DNA of 64,000 nt from assembly GCA_964565945.1 (NCBI GenBank), contig CAZMGY010000021.1, positions 44,300 to 108,299 on the forward strand, read 5' to 3'. Source of the stretch: an uncultured bacterium. GTDB taxonomy: Bacteria; GCA-001730085. The notes beneath the pieces are model-generated. The model was given only the letters and a program-made list of their open reading frames with translations, did no database searches and was not told where the DNA came from. Positions 3,287 to 36,161 of this stretch are shown here, piece by piece. A program made the position numbers and the translations under genes. Positions within the stretch are counted from its first letter, which is position 1, and each line of letters starts with the position of its first letter.

Positions 3287-3363
3287 CGCGGGGTGGAGCA
3301 GACTGGAAGCTCGTTGGGCTCATAACCCAAAGGTCGAGGGTTCGAATCCCTCCCCCGCTACCA
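3287..3363 (+). tRNA. tRNA-Met (CAT), initiator type
   Basis: 77-nt cloverleaf read by hand: acceptor CGCGGGG/CCCCGCU with a 1-72 mismatch, D-stem GAGC/GCTC, anticodon stem with three G-C pairs next to loop CTCATAA (anticodon CAT), T-arm GAGGG-TTCGAAT-CCCTC, encoded CCA. Near-identical in layout to E. coli tRNA-fMet. Confidence 0.85.
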
Positions 3364-4477
3364 ACTCTATAGACGGCTGGCTAGAATAATTGTCATTGGC
3401 AACTAATCTGGCGAGCCCTTTTTTTATGTCTGCGTTTTTCATAGGATTCTCCTGTGAGGCTATGCTTAAAATACCGGCCAAAGAGCCGTGAAGATCAATT
3501 GATAGATCATCCTGCCCAGCTTTTGGGGTGAGGGTGATTTTCTCGATCAGCCCCCTTAAAATCAGCGCAGCTTCCCCTCTGTTTTCTTCTTGGTCTAAAG
3601 ATGCGCGTAAATCACTGATTTGCCTGCGATAGCGCTCAGCCATGGCAGGGTGAAGCATAGGCGCGGATTTTGGCGTGGCTTCGAGCAAGGTTTCCAACTC
3701 TTTGAGGCGCTCTGAGGCTCTCTCCAGATCATCTTTTATCAAATCCACGGCTACACCGTCTTTGATGGCCTGGATGATGTTCTCGCGCTCCTTAGCGAGT
3801 TTAGCAGCCTCTGCGCGGTAGCCCTTTAAGCTCTGATCATGCTGGCTTTGCAGCTTATTAAAGTGCTTCGTATATTCCGCGCAAAACACCTTCAAGAGAT
3901 CATCTCTCATGAGATGGGTTTGTAAGGCTCCGAGCACCAGAGCCTCGATGCGCTCACGTTTGATGCTCTTTTTATTGGCGCACACGCTAGAGCCTTTATT
4001 GCGGGATTGTGAGCAGCCATAGCGCTCAGAATTGATCTTGGCATAGCCACCGCCGCATATTCCGCATTTTAGTAGCCCAGAGAGCAGATAATTGGGGCGG
4101 TTATTGCGGTGCAGCCCCTTAAGGCTGGTATCAAGGGTCTTTTGACGGGATTTGGCAGCATCCCAAAGCTCCTGATCAACAATCCGTAAATCAGGCACAT
4201 CTTGCCTGATCCAATCCGCCTCATCGTTTAGGCGGGTAACGCGCTTGCCCGTAGCTGGGTCTTTGATAAAATGCTGGCGGTTCCAGATTAATTCCCCAAT
4301 ATAAAGATGGTTATTTAAGATGCCGGTTCCGCGCCTGCGATTACCATTGATGGTCGATTGCCCCCAGGCCTTGCCTGAGGGGGCAGGGATGCCGTCTTTG
4401 TTCAGCGCATCGGCAATTGCCTTGGGAGATTTATTTTTAAGGGCGTATTCTTCGAATATGCGCTTAACGATTTTGGC
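3320..4477 (-). CDS. large serine recombinase, C-terminal recombinase/zinc-ribbon portion (downstream of an in-frame stop)
   Basis: Reading frame is open from 4477 to 3320 and continuous with the 4478..5011 ORF except for one TAA at 4478-4480. Translation includes 'WGQSTINGNRRRGTGILNNHLYIGELIWNRQ' (recombinase-domain signature) and a Cys-rich 'CGICGGGY...CSQSRNKGSSVC' zinc-ribbon. The 3' end overlaps the tRNA 3' end. Confidence 0.7.
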   Translation of the reverse strand, partial: AKIVKRIFEEYALKNKSPKAIADALNKDGIPAPSGKAWGQSTINGNRRRGTGILNNHLYIGELIWNRQHFIKDPATGKRVTRLNDEADWIRQDVPDLRIVDQELWDAAKSRQKTLDTSLKGLHRNNRPNYLLSGLLKCGICGGGYAKINSERYGCSQSRNKGSSVCANKKSIKRERIEALVLGALQTHLMRDDLLKVFCAEYTKHFNKLQSQHDQSLKGYRAEAAKLAKERENIIQAIKDGVAVDLIKDDLERASERLKELETLLEATPKSAPMLHPAMAERYRRQISDLRASLDQEENRGEAALILRGLIEKITLTPKAGQDDLSIDLHGSLAGILSIASQENPMKNADIKKGLARLVANDNYSSQPSIELVAGEGFEPSTFGL

Positions 4478-5011
4478 TTAGATTTCGTTGATCTCCCGAT
4501 CACCGCGTATGGCCTCGCCCTCAGAGTTAAATTGCTTCACGACTTTATAGCCGTAAGCAATGCCGCCTCCAGATTTCCCTTTTTCAACGCGCCCGCGAAG
4601 CCCGCGCCGCGTTTTATCTGCAAGGTCTTTCAGGCACATAGCGTTCATCGTGCCTTTAAGGCCGATATGCAATGTTGAGATTTCACCTTCGGACAGAGTG
4701 ATGATTTTAACGCCAGCAAATTCCATGCGCTTATAGATACCGGCAATATCTTCCTGATCACGGGACAGGCGATCCAGCGCCTCGCAGATTAGAATATCAA
4801 ACTCACCGTTCATGGCAGCCGTTAGTAGCGATTGAATACCAGGGCGCATAAGTGATGCGCCTGATATTCCTGCATCGCTATAGCAGTTTCCTAAATCCCA
4901 GCCTTCGGCTTTGGCTTTTTCTGACGCGAGGCGGATTTGATCTTCAATCGAAGCATCGCTTTGAAGATCAGAGCTATATCTGGCATAGATGCAGGCGCGT
5001 AATTTTTTCAT
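4478..5011 (-). CDS. large serine recombinase, N-terminal resolvase/invertase catalytic domain (ends at in-frame TAA)
   Basis: 177 aa; 'CIYARYSSDLQ' catalytic-serine motif, then 'DILICEALDRLSRD' and 'KRMEFAGVKIITL', typical of the serine recombinase catalytic domain. Confidence 0.75.
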   Translation of the reverse strand: MKKLRACIYARYSSDLQSDASIEDQIRLASEKAKAEGWDLGNCYSDAGISGASLMRPGIQSLLTAAMNGEFDILICEALDRLSRDQEDIAGIYKRMEFAGVKIITLSEGEISTLHIGLKGTMNAMCLKDLADKTRRGLRGRVEKGKSGGGIAYGYKVVKQFNSEGEAIRGDREINEI

Positions 5012-5202
5012 TATTCTTCACCTTCCAATTTCTGATTTGAGAGCTGATCAGCGCAAAGCTTGTAATCTTCTTCCGCACATGTGCGGGCTAAGAGCTTTAC
5101 GAGATTAATAAGGGCTAGGTCATGATTATGACTCTCTTCCTTATGACTCTTCAAGCGCGTCTGCTTGTTTTTCCGTGCAGACTTATTCATCTGATCCCCC
5201 AT
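5011..5202 (-). CDS. hypothetical small basic protein
   Basis: 63-aa ORF immediately upstream of the recombinase gene, same strand; no recognisable motif. A directionality-factor role is speculation only. Confidence 0.25.
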   Translation of the reverse strand: MGDQMNKSARKNKQTRLKSHKEESHNHDLALINLVKLLARTCAEEDYKLCADQLSNQKLEGEE

Positions 5203-5473
5203 ATAAGGGGCGAGAACAAGATAGACCTCGCCCCCGAGAGGGAATTGGCGCGAGCAGTGGGGCTGTAAGATGCAAAGACAGTGGGTGATAATGCGCTGGC
5301 TTTGCGTAAATTCGCGCCAAATAAAAAGGGGAACATATTGCCTTCACAAAATGTACCCCTAGACTTCATGCTAGGCAGCAAAAGCTTAATAAATCCTAAA
5401 GATGCACCGTCAAACATGGCTCTCACAGCCACATTCCAAGGAGTTATTAAGATATATTTAATGCTCATAGTGC

Positions 5474-7138
5474 TCATGCGTGCCCATTAAGGTATATGCG
5501 CACAGGCAAGTTTTTTGGATAATTATTTTTGTGATAAGGGCTTTTACCTGCTAATTTTCGCCATGGCTCTATCTGGAAGTAAGCTAATTTCTCAGCTCTA
5601 ATCAAAGCTTTTCCATCAATAGCGATAAGCTGGTGGCTCATATCCATGCGCCCGATCTCATCTATGCTCATCACGGATGCGGCGCGCTCGTTAATACTTA
5701 AACGCCATGGAGAAACCGGATTATTGGGATCACGGGTAAGAGAGCGGGCTTTCATGGTTTTATTACCAATGCGAGCGCTCCATGCTTTACGATCAAGTTC
5801 CCCGCGTATGCTCCAAGCCTGCATAAAGCTTGATTGCTCTTCGATCAGGCCTGCCATTTGCTGGCCATAAATCTCAATTGGTTGGCGGCGGCTTTGAAAC
5901 ACCATCCATAGGCGCACGCCCTTGCCAGGCAATAGTGATAGCGCTTTGGAAAGATTAGGTAGCTTGCCGATATTACCCATCTCTTCTAAAAGCATCATGA
6001 TTGGTGAAGGCTTTGGCGCGGCGGCAATGGTTTCTAGTAACAATGTAGCGATCAGGCCAAGGGCAGAGCCATGGGTTTCTAATTTTGCTTCTGGCAAAAT
6101 CACATAGAGCGTGGTTTTGCCATCCAGAATATCGGATAATTTAAAATCAGAGCTGCTCATTGCCGCGCCCATAGGTGAGTGCGCGTCATAAATCTCAAGA
6201 GCGTTCATGGCGTTATCTCTAAATGCGCCATAGGTCTTGATATATTCAGATCGCAACATCTCTGCTAAGCCATTGCCGTAATCTTGAAGTAATCCGTGCA
6301 GCCAATCGCTTGAGCGCATCTCAAAGGCAATGGCTTTTTGTTTATTGCTTCCAGCCCAGATAAGTTTGCGCAAAGTTGGCAGGGTGCATTGATCAGGCAT
6401 AAACACAGCCATATATAAAAGGAATGTAATGATTAGCCTGCGCCCACCATTACGGAAGAACATACCATCGCCCATATCATTAGGCCTTTCTGCAATGAGC
6501 TGGAAGGCAATAGAGCGCGCAAGATCATGCAAGTCCTTGCCTCCGTTCTTCATCACATCAACAACCAAGATGCGCAGTGGATTAAAATTCACGCCCTTAA
6601 TGCCAAGAACATTAAAGGGATTAAAGATCAAAACATTTTGACCTCGCGCTTTACGGTACTTGGCGGTGATAGCTGTTAGCTCGCCCTTAACATCGGTAAC
6701 AAACATCGAGCCTCCAAACCAGTGCAAAAGCGCAGGAATAATTACCGAGATTGTTTTACCGGTGCGTGAAGGCGCATAGGTCAGCATGTGACCATTGCCA
6801 GTTAGGTATGGATCGTAAAAGAGCGGGGCATCTGCCATGCTGCCAACATAAAAACCACTGCGGTTTTTAATTAGCTCTTTTATGAAGCTGTCTTGGATTT
6901 CGGCCAGTCTTGCATGACCATAGCTATCAGATAGCTTGCGACTTTCATGCAATAGATTGATCTGATGCGCGGTATGTAATGACAGGGAAAGAAACTCCAT
7001 TATCTTTTTGATAAAGATAAGCAGCGCCAAGCCCATCACTGCCACGCCCCAAACATAACCGCCATTCATAGCGGCCAGCCACAATCCTGCAAGAAGCAGG
7101 ATTAGTGGCATGAGCAGGAAAATGAGGGCGGTAAACAT
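5474..7138 (-). CDS. type IV secretion coupling protein (TraG/TraD/VirD4 family ATPase)
   Basis: 554 aa; two N-terminal TM helices; Walker A-like 'YAPSRTGKTISVIIPALL'; 'MMLLEEMGNIGKLP' matches the T4CP 'DEFxNLG' Walker B region. Confidence 0.75.
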   Translation of the reverse strand: MFTALIFLLMPLILLLAGLWLAAMNGGYVWGVAVMGLALLIFIKKIMEFLSLSLHTAHQINLLHESRKLSDSYGHARLAEIQDSFIKELIKNRSGFYVGSMADAPLFYDPYLTGNGHMLTYAPSRTGKTISVIIPALLHWFGGSMFVTDVKGELTAITAKYRKARGQNVLIFNPFNVLGIKGVNFNPLRILVVDVMKNGGKDLHDLARSIAFQLIAERPNDMGDGMFFRNGGRRLIITFLLYMAVFMPDQCTLPTLRKLIWAGSNKQKAIAFEMRSSDWLHGLLQDYGNGLAEMLRSEYIKTYGAFRDNAMNALEIYDAHSPMGAAMSSSDFKLSDILDGKTTLYVILPEAKLETHGSALGLIATLLLETIAAAPKPSPIMMLLEEMGNIGKLPNLSKALSLLPGKGVRLWMVFQSRRQPIEIYGQQMAGLIEEQSSFMQAWSIRGELDRKAWSARIGNKTMKARSLTRDPNNPVSPWRLSINERAASVMSIDEIGRMDMSHQLIAIDGKALIRAEKLAYFQIEPWRKLAGKSPYHKNNYPKNLPVRIYLNGHA

Positions 7139-7142
7139 GATT

Positions 7143-8177
7143 TTATTTACCTATATGCAGGACTTGTAGGCCGGATATAGAAACGCCTAAGCTCTGGAAG
7201 AAGTTTTGCAGATCAGCATCAAGGTTATTGGTAGAGACAATTTCAAGATCAGCCAGACCCTTTAAGTGACCAGTTTCGTAATTGCCCACCCAAAACACAA
7301 AGAGCTTGGAGTTTGTTTTTGCTTTGGTGGCATTAAGGCTTTCTAATGTTTGCCCGTAATTGGCGGTGTTTATACCGTCTGTTACAACAATCGTGATATT
7401 AGGAAGATCAGTAACAAAGCCCTGAATATCAGATTCAAAGCCAGTTTCTATGGCCTTGTAGAGCGCAGTAGCACCGCCAGCTTTGAGCGGTTTATTCAAA
7501 TGATAAATCATATAGGGGCAGCTTTTTAGATAACTCATACCATTATCCGAAAGCCGCACAACATCATTGCTAAAGGTAAATATCTGGCAGCGCGCAGAGC
7601 CTGGAAGTTTTTTCATAAAATCCCTTGTGGCGCTTACCACAGCGCCCAAATGCCAATCCATTGAGCCGCTAGTATCCAGCGCAATGGCAACAGGCATGTG
7701 CAATGAGCCAAGGGATTTCATTGGCGTGTAGTTAAAGCTCAGGGGCTTAAAATCTGCGTCAAACACAGCGATATCTTTAAGCTTTGGGCTGATGACTTTA
7801 TTGTTCGCACCATAAAACAGCACACCTGCATCGCGGCCTTTCTGCTTATCACTGACACTGGCAATGCTAAGGTGGGTTACATCGCCGCCAGCAATGATGA
7901 TTACCCCCGCTTTTTTATGAACGCCAAAGGCGGTAAAGCTTCTTCCATCTTTAAGCTTTAGATCAGAGCGACGAACTTTAAGAGCCAGCAAATCATCATG
8001 GGCAGCAGATAGATCAATCTGAAAGCTAACCGTGCCAAGCGTTTTTGTTAGCACATCAGGATCACTAATCTCGATAGAAGTTGTTTGTAACTCCTGCGGT
8101 TCGATAACTTCTATCGCAAAAGCTGGATTTACGAAGAAACAAAAAACTAAAACAAACAATCGTTTGAGCTTAATCAT
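7143..8177 (-). CDS. secreted von Willebrand factor A (vWA)-domain protein
   Basis: 344 aa with signal peptide; 'VAIALDTSGSMDW' fits the MIDAS DxSxS motif of vWA domains; overlaps the upstream gene stop (operon). Confidence 0.55.
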   Translation of the reverse strand: MIKLKRLFVLVFCFFVNPAFAIEVIEPQELQTTSIEISDPDVLTKTLGTVSFQIDLSAAHDDLLALKVRRSDLKLKDGRSFTAFGVHKKAGVIIIAGGDVTHLSIASVSDKQKGRDAGVLFYGANNKVISPKLKDIAVFDADFKPLSFNYTPMKSLGSLHMPVAIALDTSGSMDWHLGAVVSATRDFMKKLPGSARCQIFTFSNDVVRLSDNGMSYLKSCPYMIYHLNKPLKAGGATALYKAIETGFESDIQGFVTDLPNITIVVTDGINTANYGQTLESLNATKAKTNSKLFVFWVGNYETGHLKGLADLEIVSTNNLDADLQNFFQSLGVSISGLQVLHIGK

Positions 8178-8869
8178 TTTGAGACCTCCAATTTAAGTCC
8201 GCCCCGAAGAGCAAATTTACTGCGCTCAATATCCATCAAACTCATGGGAATGGAGCGCTGCGCCGCTGCATTAAAACTCGGTTCTAGGAATTCTTCCCAG
8301 ACGCGCTTTTGATGAGGTGATGCCCAGTAAAAAGCTATAGAGTGAATACTCTTGTATGTAGATAGAGCCTGATTGATATCTCCCTCCAATGGCGGAGGCT
8401 GGGGCAGGGTGATTTGCGTTGTATCACTGCACGGTATTGGCGTATGGATCAGCGAAGAAAATACAATCACATGAGCGCTGGTAAATCCCTGGCGCTCAAG
8501 CGCATTGATATTGCTGGCCAGTTCCATGAATGCCCCAGGCAGATTATTACAGTTCTCTGGATTGCTCTTAATCGCATTAACCAGCTCAAGTGCGCGTTCG
8601 GGCTTGCGCTTGAGATCACTGGGAACACCCGACCAGATGGTGCGGCCAATCGAAGTGCTAATCACATCGATATGCGCACGGGCAAACTCACGCTTACGGG
8701 TTAGCCCTTTTATATGCGAGAGCAAGACCAGCTTGTATTGATCAGCATCTATTGGATCAATCAGCACGCCGCTATCATCAATGATGAGCTGGATTGTGGT
8801 GTGCGTTCCTCTAGCCATTACTGGCATTGAGAAGCAAAGGATAATTAGTAATGCAATTTTGGTTTTCAT
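8174..8869 (-). CDS. hypothetical exported protein
   Basis: ORF with internal start 'MKTKIALLIILCFSMPVMA' (signal peptide); start overlaps the upstream gene stop, stop overlaps the downstream gene start. Confidence 0.45.
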   Translation of the reverse strand: MKTKIALLIILCFSMPVMARGTHTTIQLIIDDSGVLIDPIDADQYKLVLLSHIKGLTRKREFARAHIDVISTSIGRTIWSGVPSDLKRKPERALELVNAIKSNPENCNNLPGAFMELASNINALERQGFTSAHVIVFSSLIHTPIPCSDTTQITLPQPPPLEGDINQALSTYKSIHSIAFYWASPHQKRVWEEFLEPSFNAAAQRSIPMSLMDIERSKFALRGGLKLEVSK

Positions 8870-9504
8870 TGTTCTGATCCTCCTTTTAAGGCAAGTTTGG
8901 CGCTGGGAACCATATGCGCGGTTGCCAGACCCATGGCAGCATTGGTGATGATTAGTGCTACGCTCATAATCAGCATCGGCCAAAAACTCGCCTCACCACC
9001 TGAAAAGCCAGGAATGGGAGAAGGTGCGGTTTCTTCCTTGATGCGTATATATAATGTTGCGAACTCAGTGGAGATCACGAAGAAATAGAGCAGGGCAAAC
9101 ACAGCGGTGATTACAATATGCAGCCCGTCTTTAAAGAATTTACCGCCAGCTTCGAATATCTCGCCGTGGCGCTCTAATAACTGCCCGAATAAAAATACCG
9201 GCGTAGCAACAGCGGCCAAGCCGAGCACGCCATTGATCAGCGTGCCTACAGAGATGTTGGAAAGTGCGGAGATATCCGGCAGGCCAAGAACATCAAGCAC
9301 AAACAGGTCAGAGCCAACCGTATTGACCAATGCGTAGTTACTTGTATGTAACAGCCAGTTACCTGCTTCCGCCGAGAAGATCAGGGATAATTTGCCAAAT
9401 AGCCATAACTTGTCGCTTGGCTCCAAGGGGTGCTGGTTTGAGCCGTGTTCAGGCGGCTGCCAGCTCTCGAAATTGTCGTTACTATCACTCATAAAAGCCT
9501 CCAA
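8866..9504 (-). CDS. hypothetical integral membrane protein
   Basis: 212 aa with several hydrophobic helices; first gene of a four-gene minus-strand block ending in the T4CP. Confidence 0.45.
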   Translation of the reverse strand: MEAFMSDSNDNFESWQPPEHGSNQHPLEPSDKLWLFGKLSLIFSAEAGNWLLHTSNYALVNTVGSDLFVLDVLGLPDISALSNISVGTLINGVLGLAAVATPVFLFGQLLERHGEIFEAGGKFFKDGLHIVITAVFALLYFFVISTEFATLYIRIKEETAPSPIPGFSGGEASFWPMLIMSVALIITNAAMGLATAHMVPSAKLALKGGSEQ

Positions 9505-9696
9505 CCCCTTCTAGTAAGGGGAGTTGTTTGAAATAGAGGCTTTGCGCAAAGCTTGGGGAAACTTTAATTTATTGGTTTGATGGAAGCAAAGACAGGACAC
9601 AAGACTATATTTCACTGCTATTTGCATAACATTTTGATAAACAATGAAAAATACAGGTAGAATTGGAAATTCAAACAGCAGTATTTTGAGGTTTAA

Positions 9697-10644
9697 ATGG
9701 CTAATTTAAGGAAGAACTCAGCAAAATCTGAATTTTGGAAAAAGCATGTGCAGGAGTGGAAGAAGGGGAGGCTAATTCAATCTGAATATTGTATAAAAAA
9801 TAAAATATCAGAATCTGCATTTTCCAAATGGAAAACTAAATTATTCCCAAAACAAATTGGAACGCGGCGCTTAAAACAGCTTAAAAATAAATATTATAAA
9901 AACTCGAAATTGTCTAACCAGCAAATCGAAAATTTATTTGTAGGTTTTTTATGTGATGTGCCAGCGAAAGTTGCTGCTAAAGGGAGTGATATAAGTGAGG
10001 CTACTGCTTATAAATACTATAACAAAATACGATATGATTTAGTTAATGGAGCGCTAAATTATCCGCTTTTATTTTTTGGTTCAGGGATGCTTTTGATTTT
10101 AGGGGCACCACCAGATGTACATGAGTTAGCACGCAAATTTAAACCCATAAGCCCAAGTATAAAAGGCAGAGAAAAACATATATATTACGCGCTTTGTAAT
10201 GTTTTGATTTGTCATTCTTTTCGCAAATGGACAGTTTCCGAGATATATTATTTTTGGTTTCAGGGGTTACGGGCATATTTTTTAAAGCACTATGCTAAAA
10301 GTCATGGTCTAAATGAAAGTGATTGGAATATGGCTATGGCAGTTCAGATGCAAAATAAAATTTCAATTGCAAAAATGACAGTAACAATATGGCTGGATTG
10401 GATAAAAGAGGGAGGAAATACTACCCCTTTTTCTGAGGATGTATGGGAAGCTATTCGATATCAACATGACTATCATGCTGATGCTAAATCCTGGATAAAA
10501 CCTATGCTCCATGATTTAAAATGGGTCGTAGAGAGAAATAATAATTTAAAAAGAAGTACATACTGGGATTTCTTTAAACCTAGCAAGTCAGGTATTCTTG
10601 AAGTAAATAGAAGGATTCATGAATACCTAGAAAGAACAAACTAG
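9697..10644 (+). CDS. hypothetical protein with N-terminal transposase-OrfA-like HTH
   Basis: 315 aa, very AT-rich; N-terminus 'EFWKKHVQEWKKGRLIQSEYCIKNKISESAFSKWKTKL' resembles IS3/IS66 OrfA-type HTH; remainder unrecognised. Confidence 0.4.
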   Translation: MANLRKNSAKSEFWKKHVQEWKKGRLIQSEYCIKNKISESAFSKWKTKLFPKQIGTRRLKQLKNKYYKNSKLSNQQIENLFVGFLCDVPAKVAAKGSDISEATAYKYYNKIRYDLVNGALNYPLLFFGSGMLLILGAPPDVHELARKFKPISPSIKGREKHIYYALCNVLICHSFRKWTVSEIYYFWFQGLRAYFLKHYAKSHGLNESDWNMAMAVQMQNKISIAKMTVTIWLDWIKEGGNTTPFSEDVWEAIRYQHDYHADAKSWIKPMLHDLKWVVERNNNLKRSTYWDFFKPSKSGILEVNRRIHEYLERTN

Positions 10645-11933: not shown

Positions 11934-12146
11934 GTGTGACGTTTTGTGTTAAAAATGTGTGATGTTTTACTGTAACCGAATTAAGTAAAAATTCAGTTTA
12001 CGTCAACAACTTATTCTGCAAGGTAAGCTCACAAAGCGTTTCAGAAGATAGCAATTGTTAATAAATAGAGGGGAAGTGGCGGAGACTGAGGGATTCGTTT
12101 GTTGTTTTTTTGCCCTGTAACATACTGTTATGAAACAATAAAAATA

Positions 12147-12506
12147 TTAGGGTAAATAATTTGTGTGTGAAACGTGTGAAAAAATGTGTGAAATATTTTC
12201 TATGTTTTTTCTGCTAGAAACTTCTGTTGATAAGTTTTTATGGCCTATGCTTTTAGCAATGTCCAGAAGCTCATGCTTCGATTTATATTCTGTTAGTTCA
12301 TTATGCAACCGTTCAAACAATGGAAGATATCTATCACCGTAAACAGCAATGATATTTGCAAGGTGGTTATAAGCTTCCTGTAATTCAGTAAACGTTATTT
12401 TTGAGCGTTTAATTCTAACTTTTGAAAAAACATTTGCCTTATTTGATGATAAGACGGGGCTGCATTGTTTCATGCACTTTTCAATATTCCAATCTAGTGT
12501 AGGCAT
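12147..12506 (-). CDS. hypothetical protein
   Basis: 119-aa ORF, adjacent to and on the same strand as the AlpA-like gene; its 3' end coincides with TGTGTGA repeats, so the C-terminus is uncertain. Confidence 0.3.
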   Translation of the reverse strand: MPTLDWNIEKCMKQCSPVLSSNKANVFSKVRIKRSKITFTELQEAYNHLANIIAVYGDRYLPLFERLHNELTEYKSKHELLDIAKSIGHKNLSTEVSSRKNIENISHIFSHVSHTNYLP

Positions 12507-12853
12507 CAGCTTGTTTCCTTGCCACTATCCTGGCGATACGTATGCGGGCTTTTGATCCATTCATGAATATCTTTGAGATAAAAAGCCTTACGCTTAGCTT
12601 TCTTGTGTGAAGATAGCATTCTTGGCCTGGGGAATGTACCGCGTGCAATGCGCCTTCTTATCTCTTGCCTTGATATACCACAGAGCCTGACTGCAAGCTT
12701 TATTGGGATTAAGGCATTAGATTGGATCATTAGCGCGGCAGTAACTTCTGCCTCGAATGTTTTCTTTAAGCTAAATGATTTAAGTAAAAGCGTTTTCATA
12801 GGTGATTCCTTTCTACGATGTGCAGCTATTGCCACATATCTGCGTTTACTCAC
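12506..12853 (-). CDS. AlpA-like HTH DNA-binding protein (possible excisionase/regulator)
   Basis: 'IKLAVRLCGISRQEIRRRIARGTFPRPRML...AFYLKDIHEWI' resembles the prophage AlpA family (MerR-like HTH); true start may be an internal Met. Confidence 0.4.
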   Translation of the reverse strand: MSKRRYVAIAAHRRKESPMKTLLLKSFSLKKTFEAEVTAALMIQSNALIPIKLAVRLCGISRQEIRRRIARGTFPRPRMLSSHKKAKRKAFYLKDIHEWIKSPHTYRQDSGKETS

Positions 12854-13800: not shown

Positions 13801-13818
13801 GTGGCCGCCAGCCTGCTA

Positions 13819-28536: not shown

Positions 28537-28597
28537 AAGTTTTATTGAATTATCAAACCAAACAATAACAATTTACGTTCACTTTGCACTTTAGTGA

Positions 28598-28810
28598 TTA
28601 CAGGTTACTTTGTGCGTAGTAATCGAGGTAAACCTCTTCAACCTTGTTTCCATTTGGTACTTTGACATCATGATGACCAGTGTCTAATTTTCCCTTTTCA
28701 ATTTGATCTGCAAGTGATCGTAATACCCAAGCCACGGCTTTGCCATTGCTGCAATCAATCTCTATATCGCATTTTAACCGTTCTTCGAAGTCTGGATCAC
28801 CATCGAGCAT
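28598..28810 (-). CDS. hypothetical small protein
   Basis: 70-aa ORF with AAGGAG RBS 9 nt upstream of ATG; convergent with the large NTPase gene. Confidence 0.4.
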   Translation of the reverse strand: MLDGDPDFEERLKCDIEIDCSNGKAVAWVLRSLADQIEKGKLDTGHHDVKVPNGNKVEEVYLDYYAQSNL

Positions 28811-28920
28811 GTTTTAAACTCCTTTGCTGAGCTTTTTTTATATTTGTAGGGCTTCGCTATAGAGCATGATGTGAAAACATTAATGACGAGGTCAGTTTCA
28901 GCTTTTTGACAGAAAAAGCT

Positions 28921-29100
28921 TCAAGGGCATGGTGGCATATAAGTCAATTCACTTTGAATATTTTCAATAGATGCTAAAGCATTTCTTCTTTGATGCGTAT
29001 GAGGTTCACTCATCGCAAGTTCGTTAAAAGCATTTCTTAAATATCCATGTAGCTCACTTTCGTTTTTTGCTGCCAATTCAAATCTTGTTACCAGTCTCAT
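28921..29100 (-). CDS. hypothetical small protein
   Basis: 59 aa from internal Met 'MRLVTRFELAAKNESELHGYLRNAF...' with AGGAGG RBS 6 nt upstream. Confidence 0.4.
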   Translation of the reverse strand: MRLVTRFELAAKNESELHGYLRNAFNELAMSEPHTHQRRNALASIENIQSELTYMPPCP

Positions 29101-29558
29101 TTTTACCTCCTGTTTGTGGAGGTCGCGTTTATTCACGACCTTTGTTAAAGCCGCTTGTGCGCTGGAAAAATGGACTGCACCTTTGGTCGAAATATATGGA
29201 GAAGCGTGGCAAATCTCATGCTTGCAGTTCTAATGATCTCAAGTGCTTAAATAGGTTTTATAAAAGTCTGATAAAAACGCCCCTCATACAAAAGAGTAAG
29301 AGAGGCTGAATAACTAAATTGTTGGCTCACTTGAAAAAAATAAGAGAGCCAGTTGGTTTAATAGAAAAGATGAAGGACGCTGCGCCCCCTCAAATTCAAG
29401 AATAATGACGGTTTCCATTTGGGTAAGTCTCAAATAGACCCTCCGCAATTTTTCTGGATTTTTTCACCCCCGCCTAGTCGCCCTAGTCGGCAGAAGTTCA
29501 GGCGCGAGGCAAAAACGCTTCGCTAAGAACTTCAAAACCGAATTTAGGAGATAATAAA

Positions 29559-30071
29559 ATGAGTGCAGAAATTAGAATTTATGTGGCATGTTTGGCAGCG
29601 TATAACGGCGGTAGATTGCATGGCGTTTGGATTGACGCAACCGATGAGCTGGACGATATTCAAGAGCAAGTAAATATGATGCTAAAAGAAAGCCCAGAGC
29701 CAGACGCAGAAGAATGGGCGATACATGATTACGAGGGTTTTGGTGGTTATAGCGTTAGCGAATATTCAGGGTTTGAAGAGCTTCACGATGTTGCGTCTTT
29801 TATTGAAGAATATCCAGAAATTGGTGGGGAGCTTTTAGATCATTGCTCAGACCTTGAAGAAGCCAGGAAAGCCATAGAAGAAAGCTATGCAGGATGCCAT
29901 AAATCACTTGCAGATTTTGCCGAGGAAACAACCGAGGAAACAACCGAAATTCCTGAGCATTTACGGTATTACATTGATTATGAAAAAATGGGGCGTGATA
30001 TGGAAATGAGCGGAGACGTTTACACAATTGAAACAGGTTATGAGGAAGTGCATATATTTTGGAATCATTAA
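29559..30071 (+). CDS. ardA: antirestriction protein ArdA
   Basis: 170 aa, acidic; 'IYVACLAAYNGGRLHGVWIDATD', 'EEWAIHDYEGFGG' and 'LRYYIDYEKMGRDMEMSGDVYTIE' parallel the conserved ArdA blocks (e.g. Tn916 ArdA). Confidence 0.85.
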   Translation: MSAEIRIYVACLAAYNGGRLHGVWIDATDELDDIQEQVNMMLKESPEPDAEEWAIHDYEGFGGYSVSEYSGFEELHDVASFIEEYPEIGGELLDHCSDLEEARKAIEESYAGCHKSLADFAEETTEETTEIPEHLRYYIDYEKMGRDMEMSGDVYTIETGYEEVHIFWNH

Positions 30072-30095
30072 AATAAATAATTATCCAAACATTTA

Positions 30096-30119
30096 AGGGC
30101 TCTTCGGAGCCTTTTTTTT
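30096..30119 (+). terminator. rho-independent terminator downstream of ardA
   Basis: GGGCTC-TTCG-GAGCCT hairpin (UUCG tetraloop) followed by a T8 run. Confidence 0.6.
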
Positions 30120-30349
30120 AGTGCTTAAAAAAATCGCCACCGAAAGATGGTACTTTTCGGCGGTTGGTGAGCGTTTCGTCGCTCAATCTCGACCACTGTT
30201 TTGCCAGTGGATTACGACAAGGGTAATATTTATTGTTTGGTAGTTATATGTTTATAGGTGTAACCACTTCTATAATTTGGTGCATTAAGATAGTCTAGTT
30301 ATGTGAGGGGTTAGATATGAAGATAATTGAAGTATCAGGAATATAGAAA

Positions 30350-31393
30350 ATGAAAACTGGTCGAAATGATCCTTGTCCTTGTGGTAGTGGAAAAAAATAT
30401 AAGCATTGTTGCCTATCTGTAGCGCGCGCAGTAAATGATGAATTAAGTGATTTGTTGTCAGAACAAGAATTTGACTCAATAGAAGAGATGCAGGCAGCAG
30501 CAGATACCCTTGTGGCAAAACAAAACCTGAAAGCACAAGATTATTTTCTTGGGCTGTCTTCTGAACAAGTTTATCGAATGCTTAATTTTGCCTATGACAC
30601 ACCTGAGCTTTTTCAATTTTCTGATCAACTATCCGTAGAGCCTGACGCACCCATCTTGATGTTAATGAATGGTATTGTTTCAGCTATTGATGACAAGGGA
30701 TTAACGGCAACAAAAGCCAGGGGTGGTCTGCCTCAAAAACTCTGTAGAGAAATATGGGATGATTACAGCAAATTATATGCTGATGATACTTTCGCTTCCT
30801 TTCACAAGGTCAATAAAGAAGATGATTTTTTTGAATTACATGTAACGCGCGTTATTCTTGAGTTGGCAGGATTTCTTCGCAAAACCAAGGGGCGCTTCTA
30901 TTTAACCAAAAAATATCAAAAGCTCGCCAGCAAGTCAGGGTTAAAAGGTCTTTATCCCATTATTTTTAAAACTTATTGTAGTGAGTTTAATTGGGGCTAC
31001 TGGGATCATTACAATGATGTTCTCTTTATACAGCAATCGTTTTTATTTACTCTGTATTTGTTAAAGCAACATGGCGAGAAGATGACTTTTACTTCGGTCT
31101 ATGAGGATGATTTTCTGCGAGCCGTCCCTATGGTGGTTGATAAAATGGAAGGGTCGTCTTATTCCACCCCAGAAGAAGACTTGCGCCGTTGTTATTCCTC
31201 TAGGGCGATTAAGCGCTTTTTAGTGTTTTTAGGGTTAGCAGAGCTAGAAGTCATTAAGAACAATAAACATTATGACTATCATTATAAGATCAAAAAAACA
31301 CCGCTTTTTGATGCTGTGGTACATTTCAATTTTTTAGGCTCAAAAATCGGTAAGACAATTCATTCAAGTGTTCACAGCGATCATTTGCATTGA
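30350..31393 (+). CDS. SEC-C motif domain protein
   Basis: 347 aa; N-terminal 'DPCPCGSGKKYKHCC' SEC-C metal-binding motif; remainder unrecognised. Confidence 0.55.
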   Translation: MKTGRNDPCPCGSGKKYKHCCLSVARAVNDELSDLLSEQEFDSIEEMQAAADTLVAKQNLKAQDYFLGLSSEQVYRMLNFAYDTPELFQFSDQLSVEPDAPILMLMNGIVSAIDDKGLTATKARGGLPQKLCREIWDDYSKLYADDTFASFHKVNKEDDFFELHVTRVILELAGFLRKTKGRFYLTKKYQKLASKSGLKGLYPIIFKTYCSEFNWGYWDHYNDVLFIQQSFLFTLYLLKQHGEKMTFTSVYEDDFLRAVPMVVDKMEGSSYSTPEEDLRRCYSSRAIKRFLVFLGLAELEVIKNNKHYDYHYKIKKTPLFDAVVHFNFLGSKIGKTIHSSVHSDHLH

Positions 31394-31625
31394 GCGGGGA
31401 AAATAGATCAATAAGTTTGAAACTAGCTGCATATGCACACTTAGAGTGTGCAAAAGCGCAGATATTTAAACTTACCTGGTGCCTGTTGGTTAGAAACCAT
31501 TTTAAAAAAACATAATAAAAACAAGGGAAAATGGTTCTGGCCCCTAATAACGTCATGTTAATAGAAGTAAAAACTTGACGATATTGGTGGTATAGAGTAC
31601 GCTATTAAGGTAAGGAGAAATAGCC

Positions 31626-32351
31626 ATGAGTATTGCACAAGCCATTGAAAATTCGGTTAAATCCATGCCTTCTGGCCAGATTTTTGGCTATCAGGAGTTG
31701 CCTAGCTACGCTAAATCACCAGGGGCTGTGATTAAGGCGATTAGCCGTCTGGTGGCTGATAAGAGGTTGGAACGGTTTTCTAAGGGCAAGTTTTACGTAC
31801 CCAAAAAAGGCATGTTAGGTGCTAGAAAACCCTCAGATAGTGAGTTGATCCGTTCAATGTTGTACAAGGACGGGCGTTTGCGTGGTTATGTGACTGGCCT
31901 ATCTCTCTATAATCAACTGGGTCTTACAACGCAGGTGCCGCGCACAATTACGGTTGCCTATAACGGTGGTCGTCAGAAAAAAGAATATGGAACAATTCGT
32001 ATTAAGACGGTCGTTACACGTGTTCCGATTAAGGAAAAGGACGTTAAGCTTCTTCAATATTTGGACGCGCTTAAAGACATAAAAAAAATTCTAGATTCTG
32101 ATGTAAATCTTTCTCTTAAGATTATTCGCGGCTATATATCTAAGTTATCTGATCGTGAGCGTAGTCGTTTGGTGGAACTGGCGCTAAATTACTATAACCC
32201 TCAAGTCAGAGCATTGGTTGGCTTATTGTTCACAGATTTAAAACTCTCGGTTCCAAGCTCTTTGGCTCACTCACTTAACCCAACAACGACCTATAAGCTT
32301 AAGCTGGATCGCTCAATGTGGCCAATGGCCAAAGAATGGAATATCCAATAA
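31626..32351 (+). CDS. AbiEi-like antitoxin / regulator (partner of the AbiEii nucleotidyltransferase)
   Basis: 241-aa gene with GGAG RBS; stop overlaps the AbiEii start (TAATG). Assignment is mainly by operon partner; the sequence may equally be a DUF6088-type partner. Confidence 0.5.
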   Translation: MSIAQAIENSVKSMPSGQIFGYQELPSYAKSPGAVIKAISRLVADKRLERFSKGKFYVPKKGMLGARKPSDSELIRSMLYKDGRLRGYVTGLSLYNQLGLTTQVPRTITVAYNGGRQKKEYGTIRIKTVVTRVPIKEKDVKLLQYLDALKDIKKILDSDVNLSLKIIRGYISKLSDRERSRLVELALNYYNPQVRALVGLLFTDLKLSVPSSLAHSLNPTTTYKLKLDRSMWPMAKEWNIQ

Positions 32352-33151
32352 TGAATTTACATGAGGATGATGAAGCATTTGCAGAATTAGTCGCTGTAAC
32401 CGCTGAAACAATAGGCTTGCCGCAGGTCTATGTTGAAAAAGATTATTGGGTTACAAAAGCGCTTAAGAATTTATCAGAATCCAAGCATGTAGGTGAAGTG
32501 GTCTTTAAGGGTGGTACATCTTTATCCAAGGCCTATAGGTTAATTGATCGTTTTTCAGAAGATATTGATTTGGCTGTACTTGCAGGCGGCAAAGGTGATT
32601 CTGCACGTAAGAAACTACTTAAGAGCGTAGAGACTACTGCCAGCGAAGGCCTGATATGTGTGAAAGATGATGCACGGGAATCCAAAGGCTCAAAATTTCG
32701 TAAAACAGTTTATCAATATCCGCGAAGTATAGAAGGTGGTGACTTTGGGCAAGCATCTCCTGAATTATTGATCGAGGTTAATACATTTACCAATCCTGAG
32801 CCTTTTGAAACGCGGGAGCTGCAAACATTTATTGCCGAAGTTCTTACTGAAAAAGGCGAAACAGATTTAATAGCACAATATGTGCTTGAAGGTTTTCCTG
32901 TAAATGTATTGTCGGTCAGGCGTACCCTTGTTGAGAAAATGCTTGGTGTAATTAAAGATAGTTATCATGAAGACCCCGTTGCAAGGATGTCTGTTCGAAT
33001 TCGACACATATATGATGTTTGTCTGATATTAAAGAATGATGAATATCGCGACTTTATTGCTAGCGATGAATTTATGTCGCTATGTAATATTTGTATTGAG
33101 GATGAAAAGGCAGGGTTTTTGCCCCCTCTGATTGTTTCGATACACCATTAG
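32351..33151 (+). CDS. nucleotidyltransferase AbiEii/AbiGii toxin family protein (DUF1814), apparently frameshifted near the 3' end
   Basis: 'VVFKGGTSLSKAYRLIDRFSEDIDL' is the DUF1814/AbiEii hallmark; a second frame (33106-33303) continues protein-like after a T5C5 tract. Confidence 0.7.
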   Translation: MNLHEDDEAFAELVAVTAETIGLPQVYVEKDYWVTKALKNLSESKHVGEVVFKGGTSLSKAYRLIDRFSEDIDLAVLAGGKGDSARKKLLKSVETTASEGLICVKDDARESKGSKFRKTVYQYPRSIEGGDFGQASPELLIEVNTFTNPEPFETRELQTFIAEVLTEKGETDLIAQYVLEGFPVNVLSVRRTLVEKMLGVIKDSYHEDPVARMSVRIRHIYDVCLILKNDEYRDFIASDEFMSLCNICIEDEKAGFLPPLIVSIHH

Positions 33152-33306
33152 TAGATGCGCCATTATTTTTCAGATTTAAGGATTGGAGTTCCTCTCTTAA
33201 TAATATATATACCGGCGCATTTTCAGATTTGGTGTATGGTGATCTACCAGCAATGGACGAGATTGAAGAAACGTTTAATTTTATCAAAGAGAATTTGAAG
33301 TAATTA

Positions 33307-33627
33307 CTAAAAAATCCTTGATATTGGGAATTCACTATCTAATAAATTTAAAATATCTTGTGGCAGATATTCCATTGGATCGTCATAGCCAATTCGATAT
33401 TGAGGATTATCAACTGGCATATATTCAATTCCATCTTTGCAAACTGAGTAGATGATTGTGTTATGCGGAGACCACCGCGAATATTTCACGGCGTAACCGG
33501 CATCTTCTAGAACCTGCGCAATGATCGGTGTTTTAACGTCGCCATCGCCATCATCAAAACCAAACTTAGAAAAAGCCTCGCTCCAGTGATAAGAATTGCC
33601 GCAGGATTTACATTTCAAATCGTTCAT
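33307..33627 (-). CDS. hypothetical protein
   Basis: 106-aa ORF with a 'CKSCGN' Cys pair; no recognised family. Confidence 0.35.
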   Translation of the reverse strand: MNDLKCKSCGNSYHWSEAFSKFGFDDGDGDVKTPIIAQVLEDAGYAVKYSRWSPHNTIIYSVCKDGIEYMPVDNPQYRIGYDDPMEYLPQDILNLLDSEFPISRIF

Positions 33628-33641
33628 ATTCTTTCCTTTCC

Positions 33642-34160
33642 TTAAATCTCCGGCTCAAAATCGATATCTTGAGCAGGGGTATCAAAGCCCATGCCTTGCT
33701 CCTGGCTTTTGCCGTGGGATTTACTGCGCTCTGCAACGCGGGCTTTCTTCTTCTCATGGGATTTTAGGTGCGATAAATCGCGGATTAACTTGGCACGCTC
33801 TTCCTCATGTTTTTTATGTAGCGAGTTAAACTGTATTTGTAGTTTCTGGCGCATTTCTAATTGCTTATGGATCAGCTCTTCACGCTCTGCTTGGTCGCGC
33901 TTATGCGCCTGCCAGGTTTCACCGTCATTAGCTTTGCGCTGCTTCCAATAGGAGCCATTTAGCTTGTCCCATAGACCTTTAAAACCTTTGCGTATCTGCG
34001 ATACCCTAAGGGCTTCTTCCTTTTGCCAGCGGGATTCCTGATAGGCGTTTTGCGCGGCTCGGTCTTTTCGGTGCTGCAATGTCATAGCGGCCTTGGTTTT
34101 AAGTAGAGGCACTAATTCTTTATTGTGATCTTTATCCAGCTCGCCGATGAATTTCTTCAA
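33642..34160 (-). CDS. mobilization relaxase, C-terminal charged portion (split gene)
   Basis: Highly charged K/R/E/Q-rich coiled-coil-like sequence; its frame stays open upstream to ~34278 and overlaps the end of the N-terminal relaxase ORF in a +1 frame. Confidence 0.5.
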   Translation of the reverse strand: MKKFIGELDKDHNKELVPLLKTKAAMTLQHRKDRAAQNAYQESRWQKEEALRVSQIRKGFKGLWDKLNGSYWKQRKANDGETWQAHKRDQAEREELIHKQLEMRQKLQIQFNSLHKKHEEERAKLIRDLSHLKSHEKKKARVAERSKSHGKSQEQGMGFDTPAQDIDFEPEI

Positions 34161-34272
34161 TAGGGTTGATGTTTTTCCACTGATCTTATTCTTAACTGTT
34201 TCAACGCTCGGCAGGTCTTCTGCTTTGCCAAGACGTTTTTCTATTTTTTTTTCTTCGCTGTGAGCTGGCGGG

Positions 34273-34962
34273 TTAGAGAATAAACCTCACCGTGTATATA
34301 TCTATAGCTACAAAGCCGCGCTTATCTCCTTTGGCCAGCCAGTAGCCAGATTCCAGGAGCGCTTGCTCAAAGCTTTTCTTATCATCCGACCTTGCCCAGC
34401 ATTGCTGTAAGTTGGCCTTGATGGTCTTGGGGTTTTGATTTGTGCGCGCCGCTTGCTGCCACTCAGCCCTTGTGAAGTTGAGCGGGTTTTTCTGGCTCTT
34501 ATCAATAAAGCCTTTGGGCAGTTGCCAACCATGATCTAAATAAAGCTGTTTTGATATATCTTTGAGCTTATTTTTAAAAAAGGGCTGATCAATTGCCTTC
34601 ATTTCTTTGGCATCAATGCGGCTCCAAACACAATGCGCATGACGGCGGCCATGTTTTTCATGAAAGACAATGACGCGGGGCTGATTTTCAAGCCCCAGCT
34701 TTTTCTCTATTTTTGTTAGTGCATCCTCAAATGCAGCTACCAGCACTTTTTCATTTTGTGGTGGTGATAGCGATAGGGAGAACATGAAACGTGAACATCT
34801 TGTACCTTTGCTAATCGCATGGATTTCATTAAGTGCGCCGCCTATTGTTTCACTGGCAAAACCCGATACTTCATGCACCCGCACATGCTCATTTTGCTCA
34901 CCATTCATGAGGTGCTTTGCCATTTGGCGTGCGCCGCCGCGTTTACTCGCCTTGATGATCAT
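34273..34962 (-). CDS. mobilization relaxase N-terminal nuclease domain (MobA/MobL-like)
   Basis: Start 'MIIKASKRGGARQMAKHLMNGEQ...' and three-His motif 'VIVFHEKHGRRHAHCVWSRID' typical of MOB relaxases. Confidence 0.65.
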   Translation of the reverse strand: MIIKASKRGGARQMAKHLMNGEQNEHVRVHEVSGFASETIGGALNEIHAISKGTRCSRFMFSLSLSPPQNEKVLVAAFEDALTKIEKKLGLENQPRVIVFHEKHGRRHAHCVWSRIDAKEMKAIDQPFFKNKLKDISKQLYLDHGWQLPKGFIDKSQKNPLNFTRAEWQQAARTNQNPKTIKANLQQCWARSDDKKSFEQALLESGYWLAKGDKRGFVAIDIYTVRFIL

Positions 34963-35353
34963 CTTCTTTTTCCTGCAAACCCAGAGCGCGGGTGAGGGTA
35001 TTTCTAATCCAGTGAACCGAGCGGCTGGCCTCATTTAAGGCCTTTAGCACATCTATATTCACAGGCAGGGAACCTGAATTTGCAGCCCTAGCAAGCTGAT
35101 TGATATTGTTAGCTATACGAGATTGCCCAAAGGCAGCTAGCAGTCTGGCTAATTCTTTTTGGTCTTTGACGGGCTTCTTGCCCCGTGTTCTATTTTTGGG
35201 GATTTCATCACCAAAGAGAAGAAAGCGAATATAGGCAGATAGCGGGCGATCACCTGCGGCCAGCTCTAATGTCTTTCTTTCATCCTCAGTGAAGCGAATA
35301 CAATATGGGGAGGGGTATGTATATTTTTGATCCGTAGGGGTTTTTTTAGACAT
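34943..35353 (-). CDS. mobC: mobilization protein MobC-like
   Basis: 'LARLLAAFGQSRIANNINQLARAANSG' resembles the MobC signature; sits immediately upstream of, and overlaps, the relaxase gene. Confidence 0.55.
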   Translation of the reverse strand: MSKKTPTDQKYTYPSPYCIRFTEDERKTLELAAGDRPLSAYIRFLLFGDEIPKNRTRGKKPVKDQKELARLLAAFGQSRIANNINQLARAANSGSLPVNIDVLKALNEASRSVHWIRNTLTRALGLQEKEDDHQGE

Positions 35354-35783
35354 TTTTCTGTCCCCCTGTTGCCGGAAGGGCAGAGTTACTGGTAGAATAC
35401 GCATCCTTTGAAGAGCGGACTCCCTCTATTGCAGATAGTAGCGCCTCTTCTTGTAGCGGATCAGCAGCAATATCATAGCAGTTACCAGCGGTAGATAGCG
35501 TTGGCAACCAGCCCCCGCTACCAAATATAATCTATACCACAGTAGCCTTTAAGCTTATTGTGGTTTTTTTGTTTATGCTCAAATTCGGTTTGGGCTAACA
35601 CTGTGCTAACAAAATATTTTTACTCTTCTTTATTGTTATCTCACCCACTCTTTAATTTTTAACCTTTTTGTAACTTCAATTTATTAAATTCCTTATTACA
35701 AAAAAACTTTTAAATAAAAAGTCCCCCTGAGTAGATATGATATAATCACTTAAATTATGCACTGTTATAAGGATTAAACTTTA

Positions 35784-36038
35784 ATGAACATAGAAACTTT
35801 AAATCTATTAATTAAAGATGGCGAAGGCATTCGTGTCAAATTTAAGGAGAAATATTCTTCTAAAATAGCCCGTGATATAGTCGCATTTTCACATACTAAA
35901 GGCGGATATATTTTGCTTGGGGTTACGGAAAAGCTTATTGAAAGAAAATATCCCTTTTTTTTTCAACAGAACCCCCTAAATCCCCCTTATCAGAGGGTAT
36001 CTTATGTTTGTTTAAGAACTAAGTCAGCACCAAGTTAA
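35784..36038 (+). pseudogene. truncated AlbA_2/Schlafen-like (divergent AAA) domain gene fragment
   Basis: 84 aa; 'EGIRVKFKEKYSSKIARDIVAFSHTKGGYILLGVTE' resembles the N-terminus of AlbA_2-domain proteins, but the ORF stops after ~80 aa; flanked by 22-bp direct repeats. Confidence 0.35.
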
Positions 36039-36119
36039 AAATCTCGGCTAACACCATGCTAACAAAACACCCCAAACCATCAAAAAGCAACATCAACCAA
36101 GACAAAAATAAAAAGCCCC

Positions 36120-36161
36120 TAACCCAAAGGCCGAGGGTTCGAATCCCTCCCCCCGCTACCA
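36120..36161 (+). repeat. attR-like direct repeat of the tRNA-Met 3' end
   Basis: TAACCCAAAGGCCGAGGGTTCGAATCCCTCCCCCCGCTACCA matches tRNA positions 3323-3363 with one substitution and one extra C. Confidence 0.8.

Follow-up and report, generated by a model that had tools for sequence, protein, structure and literature searches.

Tandem integration scars at an initiator tRNA gene: a polymorphic 32,160-bp island, probably a mobilizable element, beside a decayed older insertion

The DNA analysed here, hereafter the window, is a 64,000-nt stretch of contig CAZMGY010000021.1 (assembly GCA_964565945.1) from an uncultured bacterium, and all coordinates refer to it. The only tRNA gene in the whole window, a tRNA-Met(CAT) detected with ARAGORN at 3287-3363 on the plus strand, is the integration target of a genomic island that separates it from tgt (36188-37291, plus strand), its native downstream neighbor. 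The tRNA starts with CGCGGGG, has a C1·U72 mismatch and an anticodon stem closed by three G:C pairs, features which we take to be the hallmarks of an initiator, and the gene is therefore called tRNA-fMet. The presence of an island at this gene had been proposed in an earlier note made from the sequence alone, and was borne out by the existence of same-species contigs that lack it.

Parts of the tRNA gene are repeated at the right side of the island. The stretch 3323-3363, from the anticodon loop to the CCA end, recurs on the plus strand as a 42-nt fragment at 36120-36161, with two differences (T3334 versus C36131, and one additional C in the C-run), exactly as the earlier note had described; its position just upstream of tgt also holds, with the correction that tgt starts at 36188 and not at 36189. 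A shorter repeat, CCCCCGCTACCAA, is present at 3352-3364 and 35512-35524, with a third copy within the 42-nt fragment at 36150-36162. Described before as 12 nt long, it actually comprises 13 nt, and its recurrence at 35512 is indeed unlikely by chance, as the base composition predicts 0.0005 copies per strand in 64 kb. Leftward of the 13-nt repeat a weaker similarity continues at 25 of 33 positions (repeat family D3).

To define the borders of the island, same-species contigs were recovered by exact-protein look-ups (tgt, the type IV coupling protein and MobC) in Logan assemblies of other sequencing runs. In contigs from seven other samples, window positions 2740-3364 were fused straight to 35512 onward via a 13-nt overlap, with 99.9-100% identity, and base-level alignment of these island-free contigs showed the tRNA followed by the sequence found after 35524. 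The comparison with relatives lacking the island, which had been suggested as a check, thus defines the empty site as 3364 joined to 35525 through the 13-nt core. On the other hand, the island contigs found through the coupling protein and MobC stopped at exactly 3335 and 35541, that is, 30 nt past each junction, in five independent samples, and one island contig from another sample was 32,192 nt long. These public assemblies were presumably built with k=31, and such ends are those of a k=31 graph in which filled and empty alleles coexist in one sample. Together, the seven empty-site junctions and the ends of the island contigs delimit a variable unit of 32,160 bp, consisting of one copy of the core plus 3365-35511 and bounded by the 13-nt repeats at 3352-3364 and 35512-35524. 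The island is therefore a discrete unit bounded by attachment (att) sites and missing from an otherwise identical empty site, and it is an insertion polymorphism persisting in the population. No circle (attP) junction was found in any public contig of the island species. As a whole, the island is not set apart by its GC content (0.418 versus 0.42-0.435 in the flanks), and its modules differ in GC from 0.47 to 0.37.

The left attachment site (attL) thus has its core at 3352-3364 on the plus strand, with a predicted crossover dinucleotide CC at 3352-3353, and the right end of the island (35486-35524, plus strand) consists of a P arm, ATAGCGTTGG (35495-35504), which mirrors CCAACTCTAT (3361-3370), followed by the right (attR) core at 35512-35524. 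The copy of the island in another sample (L102) was 99.7% identical to window positions 24928-35541, with a 15-nt indel, and the 32,192-nt contig falls 15 nt short of the window island plus overlaps, which points to length variation, in frame, within its right third.

These borders differ from those drawn in the earlier note, in which a single island extended from the tRNA to 36161, with the 42-nt repeat as its attR, a tyrosine integrase as the implied integrating enzyme and the repeat at 35512 as an older remnant. The 42-nt copy is the longest tRNA-derived repeat and there is a tyrosine recombinase gene inside the island, as that model would have it; nevertheless, we consider it very improbable, because island-free strains keep 35525-36161 unchanged, the island contigs branch on the right at 35511/35512 and not at 36120, and in relatives with an unintegrated element the sequence to the left of 35512 runs directly into the end of the large serine recombinase gene. 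The 42-nt repeat was consequently rejected as attR of the island: the two repeats have the reverse of the roles assigned to them, the span 3323-36161 lumps two separate events, and a tyrosine integrase leaving a long tRNA-derived repeat is a misfit for the current island, the evidence favoring a large serine recombinase at the tRNA-proximal end.

An assembly artefact, in which the island was misjoined to the tRNA locus in the source assembly, was also considered, as all the independent island contigs reach just 30 nt into the flanks. The right-hand 30 nt are, however, specific to the locus, with 17 nt of unique relic flank after the 13-nt core, the same ends occur in the five independent samples, and the junctions fall precisely where the attP sites of relatives predict them, so that this explanation seems extremely improbable.

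Gene content was analyzed with Pfam, NCBIfam and PADLOC scans. The large serine recombinase (LSR) gene occupies the tRNA edge of the island (3320-5011, minus strand). Between it and the gene for a type IV coupling protein (T4CP) of the TraG/VirD4 family (5474-7138, minus strand; 184 bits) there are two small open reading frames (ORFs), one of which (5011-5190, minus strand) encodes a basic 59-aa product, has a stop that overlaps the LSR start and is conserved in position in the related elements L104, L105 and L110; it might encode a directionality factor or a regulator. A gene for a VWA-domain protein and two conserved backbone ORFs (231 and 208 aa) follow at 7143-9492 on the minus strand, with 62-83% identity to their counterparts in L110. 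Next come a tyrosine recombinase gene with an N-terminal DUF6538 domain (10641-11933, minus strand), a small gene whose product weakly resembles AlpA/HTH_17 proteins, under the Pfam cutoffs (12506-12853, minus strand; 63% identical to its L104 counterpart), and a gene for an XRE-type regulator.

The plus strand of the right part of the island is dominated by putative defense functions. A type I restriction-modification (R-M) cluster (14734-23165) encodes a half-HsdS, HsdM, HsdS, a PDC-S21/DUF4917 protein, HsdR and a YgjP-like metallopeptidase. Within 14734-19144, a half-size hsdS precedes hsdM and a full hsdS follows it, with the PDC-S21/DUF4917 (SIR2-like) gene between hsdS and hsdR; the full hsdS contains an internal 42-nt repeat (17395-17436 and 17977-18018, 88%). 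Downstream are genes for a 1750-aa STAND NTPase with weak Avs4-like similarity (23284-28536), an ArdA antirestriction protein (29559-30071), a SEC-C protein and an AbiEi/AbiEii toxin-antitoxin (abortive infection) pair (31626-33151). The right end of the island is formed by a minus-strand block (34273-35404) encoding MobC (34943-35404; PF05713) and a MobA/VirD2-type relaxase (PF03432, 58.7 bits), the latter in an ORF at 34273-35034 that is called as a 229-aa protein (34273-34962) in sister contigs. No family of the type IV secretion system (mating-pair formation) was found by Pfam among the 30 larger ORFs of the island, about eight of which matched no family, none of them of VirB4 size.

This gene content makes the assignment of the island as a putative integrative mobilizable element (IME) well supported, with a cargo of defense genes (type I R-M with PDC-S21, Avs-like STAND and AbiE) plus ArdA. 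As MobC, a relaxase and a coupling protein are encoded without mating-pore genes, transfer would need a helper conjugative system, that is, the island would be mobilized in trans. Two recombinase genes lie on it, that of the three-domain LSR at the tRNA edge, with one nonsense codon, and the intact one of the tyrosine recombinase.

The LSR gene is a single reading frame of 563 codons, from 5011 to 3320, interrupted by a single TAA at 4480-4478 (codon 178). Codon 178 encodes Gln in 110 of 114 relatives, indicating a CAA→TAA mutation, and this single nonsense mutation suggests that the island is probably immobile today. PF00239 and PF13408 match the two halves of the gene, which retains a YARYSS motif with the catalytic Ser, and the Resolvase, Recombinase and zinc-ribbon domains are all annotated in relatives with 63-79% identity. 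The final 14 codons and the TGA stop lie within the tRNA gene, and this arrangement is common in the family: among the 120 closest relatives (63-79% identical), the C-termini of 96 are antisense to tRNA-fMet, 68 ending in …VAGxGFEPxTFGL* and 28 in …G[SC]GG[RW]I*. Each of these endings is what tRNA-fMet encodes when its reverse complement is translated, the stop falling in the anticodon loop for the first and in the T-loop for the second. At the DNA level, the LSR genes of L104 and L105 run with their 3' ends into a tRNA-Met; the 13-nt core there is identical and the P' arm is conserved. The named relatives are mostly marine Gammaproteobacteria, with some Alphaproteobacteria, and a tblastn search of the LSR against PLSDB plasmids was uninformative, giving only matches of about 50% identity, mostly on alphaproteobacterial replicons. 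In the alphaproteobacterial L109 (GCA_023384135.1, JAHDXS010000001.1), two near-identical LSRs with a long tail (P0114/P0115) lie on one 1.2-Mb contig, implying that two or more such elements can reside in one genome.

About a sixth of the LSR relatives have a longer ORF in place of the tRNA-encoded ending. In the three of these that were examined (L109, L110 and L112), the LSR, MobC and relaxase genes are contiguous, meaning that the two ends of the island are joined and that these elements provide an unrecombined natural attP. When the attP of the island was rebuilt from the window (35511 leftward, the core, and 3365 rightward), it matched that of L109 at 35 of 40 positions across the junction and that of L110 over about 30 identical nt on the right-end side. 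The inverted arms ATAGCGTTGG and CCAACTCTAT are 16 bp apart, and the rebuilt site has 14 of 22 dyad matches centred on the CC at 3352-3353/35512-35513, a score reached by 93 of 20,000 shuffles and by 188 of 20,000 random 93-mers of the window; the attP of L109 has a perfect 10-nt inverted repeat with the same centre. The site is thus compact, with imperfect dyad symmetry about a central dinucleotide, as in serine integrases. The resemblance of 35497-35511 to the T-arm, picked up by the repeat finder, fits a left half-site of attP that resembles the left half-site of attB. We infer that the LSR catalyzed the integration of the island and that the crossover took place at the CC dinucleotide.

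The other candidate enzyme is the DUF6538 protein, which could have integrated the island between the same 13-nt borders, the 13 nt then being the overlap and core region. Its gene is intact, with the tyrosine-recombinase signature R…K…LRH…H…Y, the AlpA-like gene adjoins it, the LSR is broken, and an identity of 13 nt at the 3' end of a tRNA is typical of tyrosine integrases. The protein gave no sequence match in the PDB and no catalytic-domain match in Pfam, its classification being founded on these motifs and on a 38% identical homologue in L112 annotated with PF00589. As integrator of this island it appears improbable for several reasons. No DUF6538 homologue was detected in the examined sequence of L105 and L110, which share the att core and arms, and the core lies within the LSR ORF throughout the clade. 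Core sites of tyrosine recombinases are expected 6-8 bp apart, and the inverted arms here are 16 bp apart. L109 and L112 carry tyrosine integrases and sit in chromosomal contigs, yet their LSR attP is unrecombined, implying that the two enzymes use different sites. In addition, the gene is 7 kb from attL and not adjacent to the tRNA. The unrecombined LSR attP of L109 and L112 suggests that the two recombinases provide alternative integration routes.

The island is a mosaic of modules. L110 has counterparts of T4CP, VWA, the two conserved ORFs, MobC, relaxase and ArdA with 62-83% identity, whereas the LSR is 65% identical to the LSR of L110 and 76-79% to another subgroup, and the DUF6538/AlpA module is nearest to that of L104; such unequal identities indicate exchange between elements. 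The earlier note had also raised nested insertion, which was not supported: the tyrosine recombinase module was rejected as a nested element, as L104, L109 and L112 carry a tyrosine integrase at the same position of the backbone. The closest backbone relative, L110 (GCA_033851915.1, a 25.7-kb contig), has the unintegrated arrangement and a cargo of HipA and a GAP1-N1/DO-GTPase/GASH conflict system, suggesting that cargo is swapped on a constant backbone. The LSR-T4CP-VWA backbone (3365-9504) has a GC content of 0.47 versus about 0.42 in the host, and its named relatives are proteobacterial; set against a host grouped by its tgt with a PVC-group bacterium, this suggests transfer across phyla.

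The unintegrated relatives also show what integration does to the LSR gene. Their integrase is about 605-620 aa long, with an additional stretch of about 55 codons that is conserved as protein (…A.DIA.KP…ALLS…EGV[HR]…GADY…) and in which indels are multiples of three. Two sub-clades cross the att core in different frames, the difference being offset by a 2-nt indel immediately ahead of the conserved block. The conserved tail and its frame-keeping indels argue for a real coding extension that is replaced on integration by tRNA-encoded residues. Any function of this tail is a matter of speculation. It is conceivable, though rather doubtful at present, that the swap of a tail of about 55 residues for about 12 antisense-tRNA residues works as a built-in sensor of the integration state, altering the activity, stability or directionality of the integrase, and that the clade is a widespread, cross-phylum, tRNA-fMet-specific family with an alternative tyrosine-integrase system on the same element. 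Our literature searches on serine integrases at initiator tRNA genes or on DUF6538 returned nothing specific, which in an incomplete collection is weak evidence, and a tRNA-fMet-targeting LSR clade with attP within the integrase ORF looks undescribed so far.

Turning to the second scar, strains without the island have kept the AlbA_2 fragment, the 42-nt copy of the tRNA end and, past tgt, the decayed recombinase; these three are therefore older than the island, and fixed. The ancestral state was sought through tgt. GTDB species representatives contained no tgt above 59% identity and provided no empty site, whereas a large protein collection contained relatives with 77% (L106) and with 66% identity; the 66% relative belongs to 'PVC group bacterium (ex Bugula neritina AB1)', by which the host is tentatively placed in the PVC group. 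L106, the nearest relative, has no island, and its tRNA-fMet is intact and placed 190 nt ahead of tgt. This tRNA has GGCCG where the functional tRNA of the window has GGTCG, and then ACCAAAAA, and both features match the 42-nt fragment. Elements that integrate into tRNA genes usually bring a new 3' part along and leave the original one at the far junction, and the anticodon loop, in which the identity block of the 42-nt copy begins, is a classic crossover position for tyrosine integrases. The arrangement in L106, GGCCG and ACCAAAAA thus make the 42-nt piece a good fit for the original 3' part of the host tRNA, displaced by an earlier insertion whose attR it would mark. The functional tRNA-fMet itself appears to be a mosaic with a host 5' half, a middle from the older element (the T3334 variant) and the last ~11 nt derived from the island.

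The relic of this older element, present in the empty-site strains, is AT-rich (35525-36119; GC 0.31). No recombination or transfer gene is recognisable in it, its sole ORF (35784-36038) being an AlbA_2 fragment with a marginal score of 24.4 bits versus a cutoff of 25.3. With the 13-nt core on one side and the 42-nt tRNA fragment on the other, 35525-36161 has the layout of a decayed att-flanked remnant, resembling a cis-mobilizable element (CIME). Inside the relic, a 22-nt motif, GGCTAACACYRTGCTAACAAAA, has exactly two copies in the 64 kb, with none expected by chance, at 35593-35614 and 36046-36067, 453 nt apart and flanking the AlbA_2 fragment; one public contig (L008) begins at 35592, hinting at a further structural variant.

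Beyond tgt, the decayed serine recombinase reported in the earlier note is real. Using the island LSR as query, tblastn aligned residues 21-222 at 38060-37451 (64-66% amino-acid identity), revealing a paralogous LSR relic on the minus strand (37451-38060) with one in-frame stop and one frameshift; island LSR and relic share a 220-nt stretch with 72% DNA identity (repeat family D1). A fourth att-like fragment, CGCTACCAAATA (37326-37337, plus strand), made up of an att-core copy and three bases of its flank, is found ~115 nt past the last aligned residue of this relic. As CCCGCTACCAA is part of the element-borne arm, the fragment may represent the left junction of a former LSR element, one that inserted at a secondary site beyond tgt and later suffered an internal deletion. 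In addition, CGCTACCAAATA and the 42-nt fragment bracket tgt with a 10-nt direct repeat, CGCTACCAAA.

The locus thus carries scars of more than one integration, in tandem, as the earlier note had surmised, and the sequences suggest the following order of events. Starting from tRNA-fMet directly upstream of tgt, an older element would have integrated with a crossover near the anticodon loop, supplying a new 3' part of the tRNA and displacing the original 42 nt to the tgt side, and would then have decayed to about 0.6 kb. Later, the 32,160-bp IME would have entered between the tRNA and the relic, its LSR recombining an attP of roughly 50 bp with the junction of T-stem and acceptor stem. The proposed attP, dyad-symmetric about CC, has in its inner right half a copy of the final 11 nt of the tRNA, by which the gene would be restored after integration; the outcome would be a 13-nt direct repeat and not a long repeat of the tyrosine-integrase type. 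The LSR would subsequently have acquired its nonsense mutation, the island staying as a polymorphism. We put the probability of this reading, namely tandem accretion at the initiator tRNA of a PVC-group bacterium of a decayed older element and then an LSR-integrated IME, at roughly 0.85.

Several observations weigh against it. The identity between attL and attR is 13 nt, which is long for a serine integrase and not limited to a 2-bp core; the extra 11 nt could be accounted for by the copy of the tRNA end in attP, which would restore the gene. An intact tyrosine recombinase is also present on the island. The tail of the island's own integrase is open for ~60 codons and one nt out of register with its LSR in the circular form, so the integration module is either chimeric (LSR exchange) or already decaying. 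No oriT was located, and inspection of the interval between attR and mobC turned up neither an inverted repeat nor a convincing promoter. The 42-nt fragment is assigned to the host on the strength of one diagnostic base and a short flank. The nonsense codon is present in the LSR of every island copy seen and, together with the lack of attP junctions, leaves no sign of present-day mobility.

Finally, insertion and precise loss are not polarisable within the species, and the polymorphism could have arisen by loss, with some lineages shedding an ancestral island either through site-specific excision or through a deletion between the 13-nt repeats. Samples do contain the two alleles side by side and excision would regenerate exactly the observed empty site, and such a loss conflicts with neither the identity of the element nor its mechanism of integration. 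The nonsense codon in all LSR copies seen, the lack of attP junctions and the absence of the island from the relative with 77% tgt identity, which fits gain, lead us to regard loss as the less probable course, although one with an appreciable chance of being right.

Some features of the flanks were recorded as well. Upstream of the tRNA, ten same-species contigs coming from the left stop at about 1712-1743, and most of those from the right begin at 2740 or 2767, with two exceptions closer to the tRNA (2916 and 3164); roughly 1 kb (1744-2739) was never assembled in public same-species contigs. The stretch 1744-3286 is AT-rich (GC 0.33), the product of the ORF at 1915-2280 has no record in the exact protein look-up, and no tandem repeat that would account for the unassembled 1744-2739 was found. 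GC skew is +0.22 in the left flank and -0.17 to -0.28 in the right flank, with the switch around 33-39 kb; the flank genes converge on the locus and the cumulative skew has its maximum near the tRNA-tgt region, as at a replication terminus.

For annotation, the locus illustrates that the longest tRNA-derived repeat need not mark the border of the active element, as with population data the border came to lie 637 bp away and the two scars swapped their relative ages. More broadly, it suggests a large serine-integrase clade with specificity for an initiator tRNA site that is conserved across phyla; its members, known from marine Proteobacteria and here from a putative PVC-group bacterium, drive mobilizable islands carrying defense genes. 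Because the attB is short and nearly universal in bacteria and the attP is compact and well defined, these enzymes might be developed into broad-host integration tools, and the integration-dependent change of the C-terminus provides a testable idea on the control of serine-integrase directionality.

Tandem accretion and the IME type are already known kinds; the points of interest are the tRNA-fMet-specific LSR clade, its presence across phyla in a putative PVC-group host, the dual recombinases and the attP within the integrase ORF. IMEs with serine recombinases have been reviewed as occurring mainly in Firmicutes, having very short repeats and usually disrupting dispensable protein-coding genes (PMC5704250). 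The island shares with them a serine recombinase at its edge, a relaxase module, the lack of mating-pore genes, short repeats and site-specific integration, and differs in targeting and restoring a tRNA gene, in belonging to a type of element found in Proteobacteria and a putative PVC-group host, and in carrying its own coupling protein and a second (tyrosine) recombinase. A three-step accretion, in which an IME comes to lie next to a decayed element still bearing att sites, is described in the same review (PMC5704250), and the layout here (target gene, new element, att, decayed element, att) and the proposed order of events are those of such CIMEs and of accretion in the ICESt1 family. Unlike in these cases, the crossovers map to two positions of the tRNA (the anticodon loop, and the junction of T-stem and acceptor stem), so the two generations of elements probably used different recombinases, and the old element is left without a recognisable recombination or transfer gene.

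Serine recombinases have been tied to tRNA-Met(CAT) before, in the Paracoccus phage vB_PamS_Pami6, a serine-integrase prophage at tRNA-Met (PMC6536676), which is however a siphovirus prophage and not an IME. A few Mesorhizobium IMEs carry serine recombinases (PMC8627217), and a large survey of LSRs groups their targets by protein-coding genes, with no mention of tRNA (PMC10083194). With the classical tRNA islands of tyrosine integrases (P4-like), the locus has in common the tRNA target and the replacement of the 3' end, and the older 42-nt scar fits that pattern; the current element differs from them in its 13-nt repeat, in the spacing of its arms, which is that of a serine-integrase site, and in the LSR at the tRNA edge. 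Partition of the integrase gene in archaeal SSV1-type elements and integration-dependent immunity in mycobacteriophages also involve an attP within an ORF, with C-termini that differ between states. Unlike in those cases, the ORF here is that of a bacterial LSR, whose last ~55 codons would be exchanged for about 12 encoded by the tRNA.

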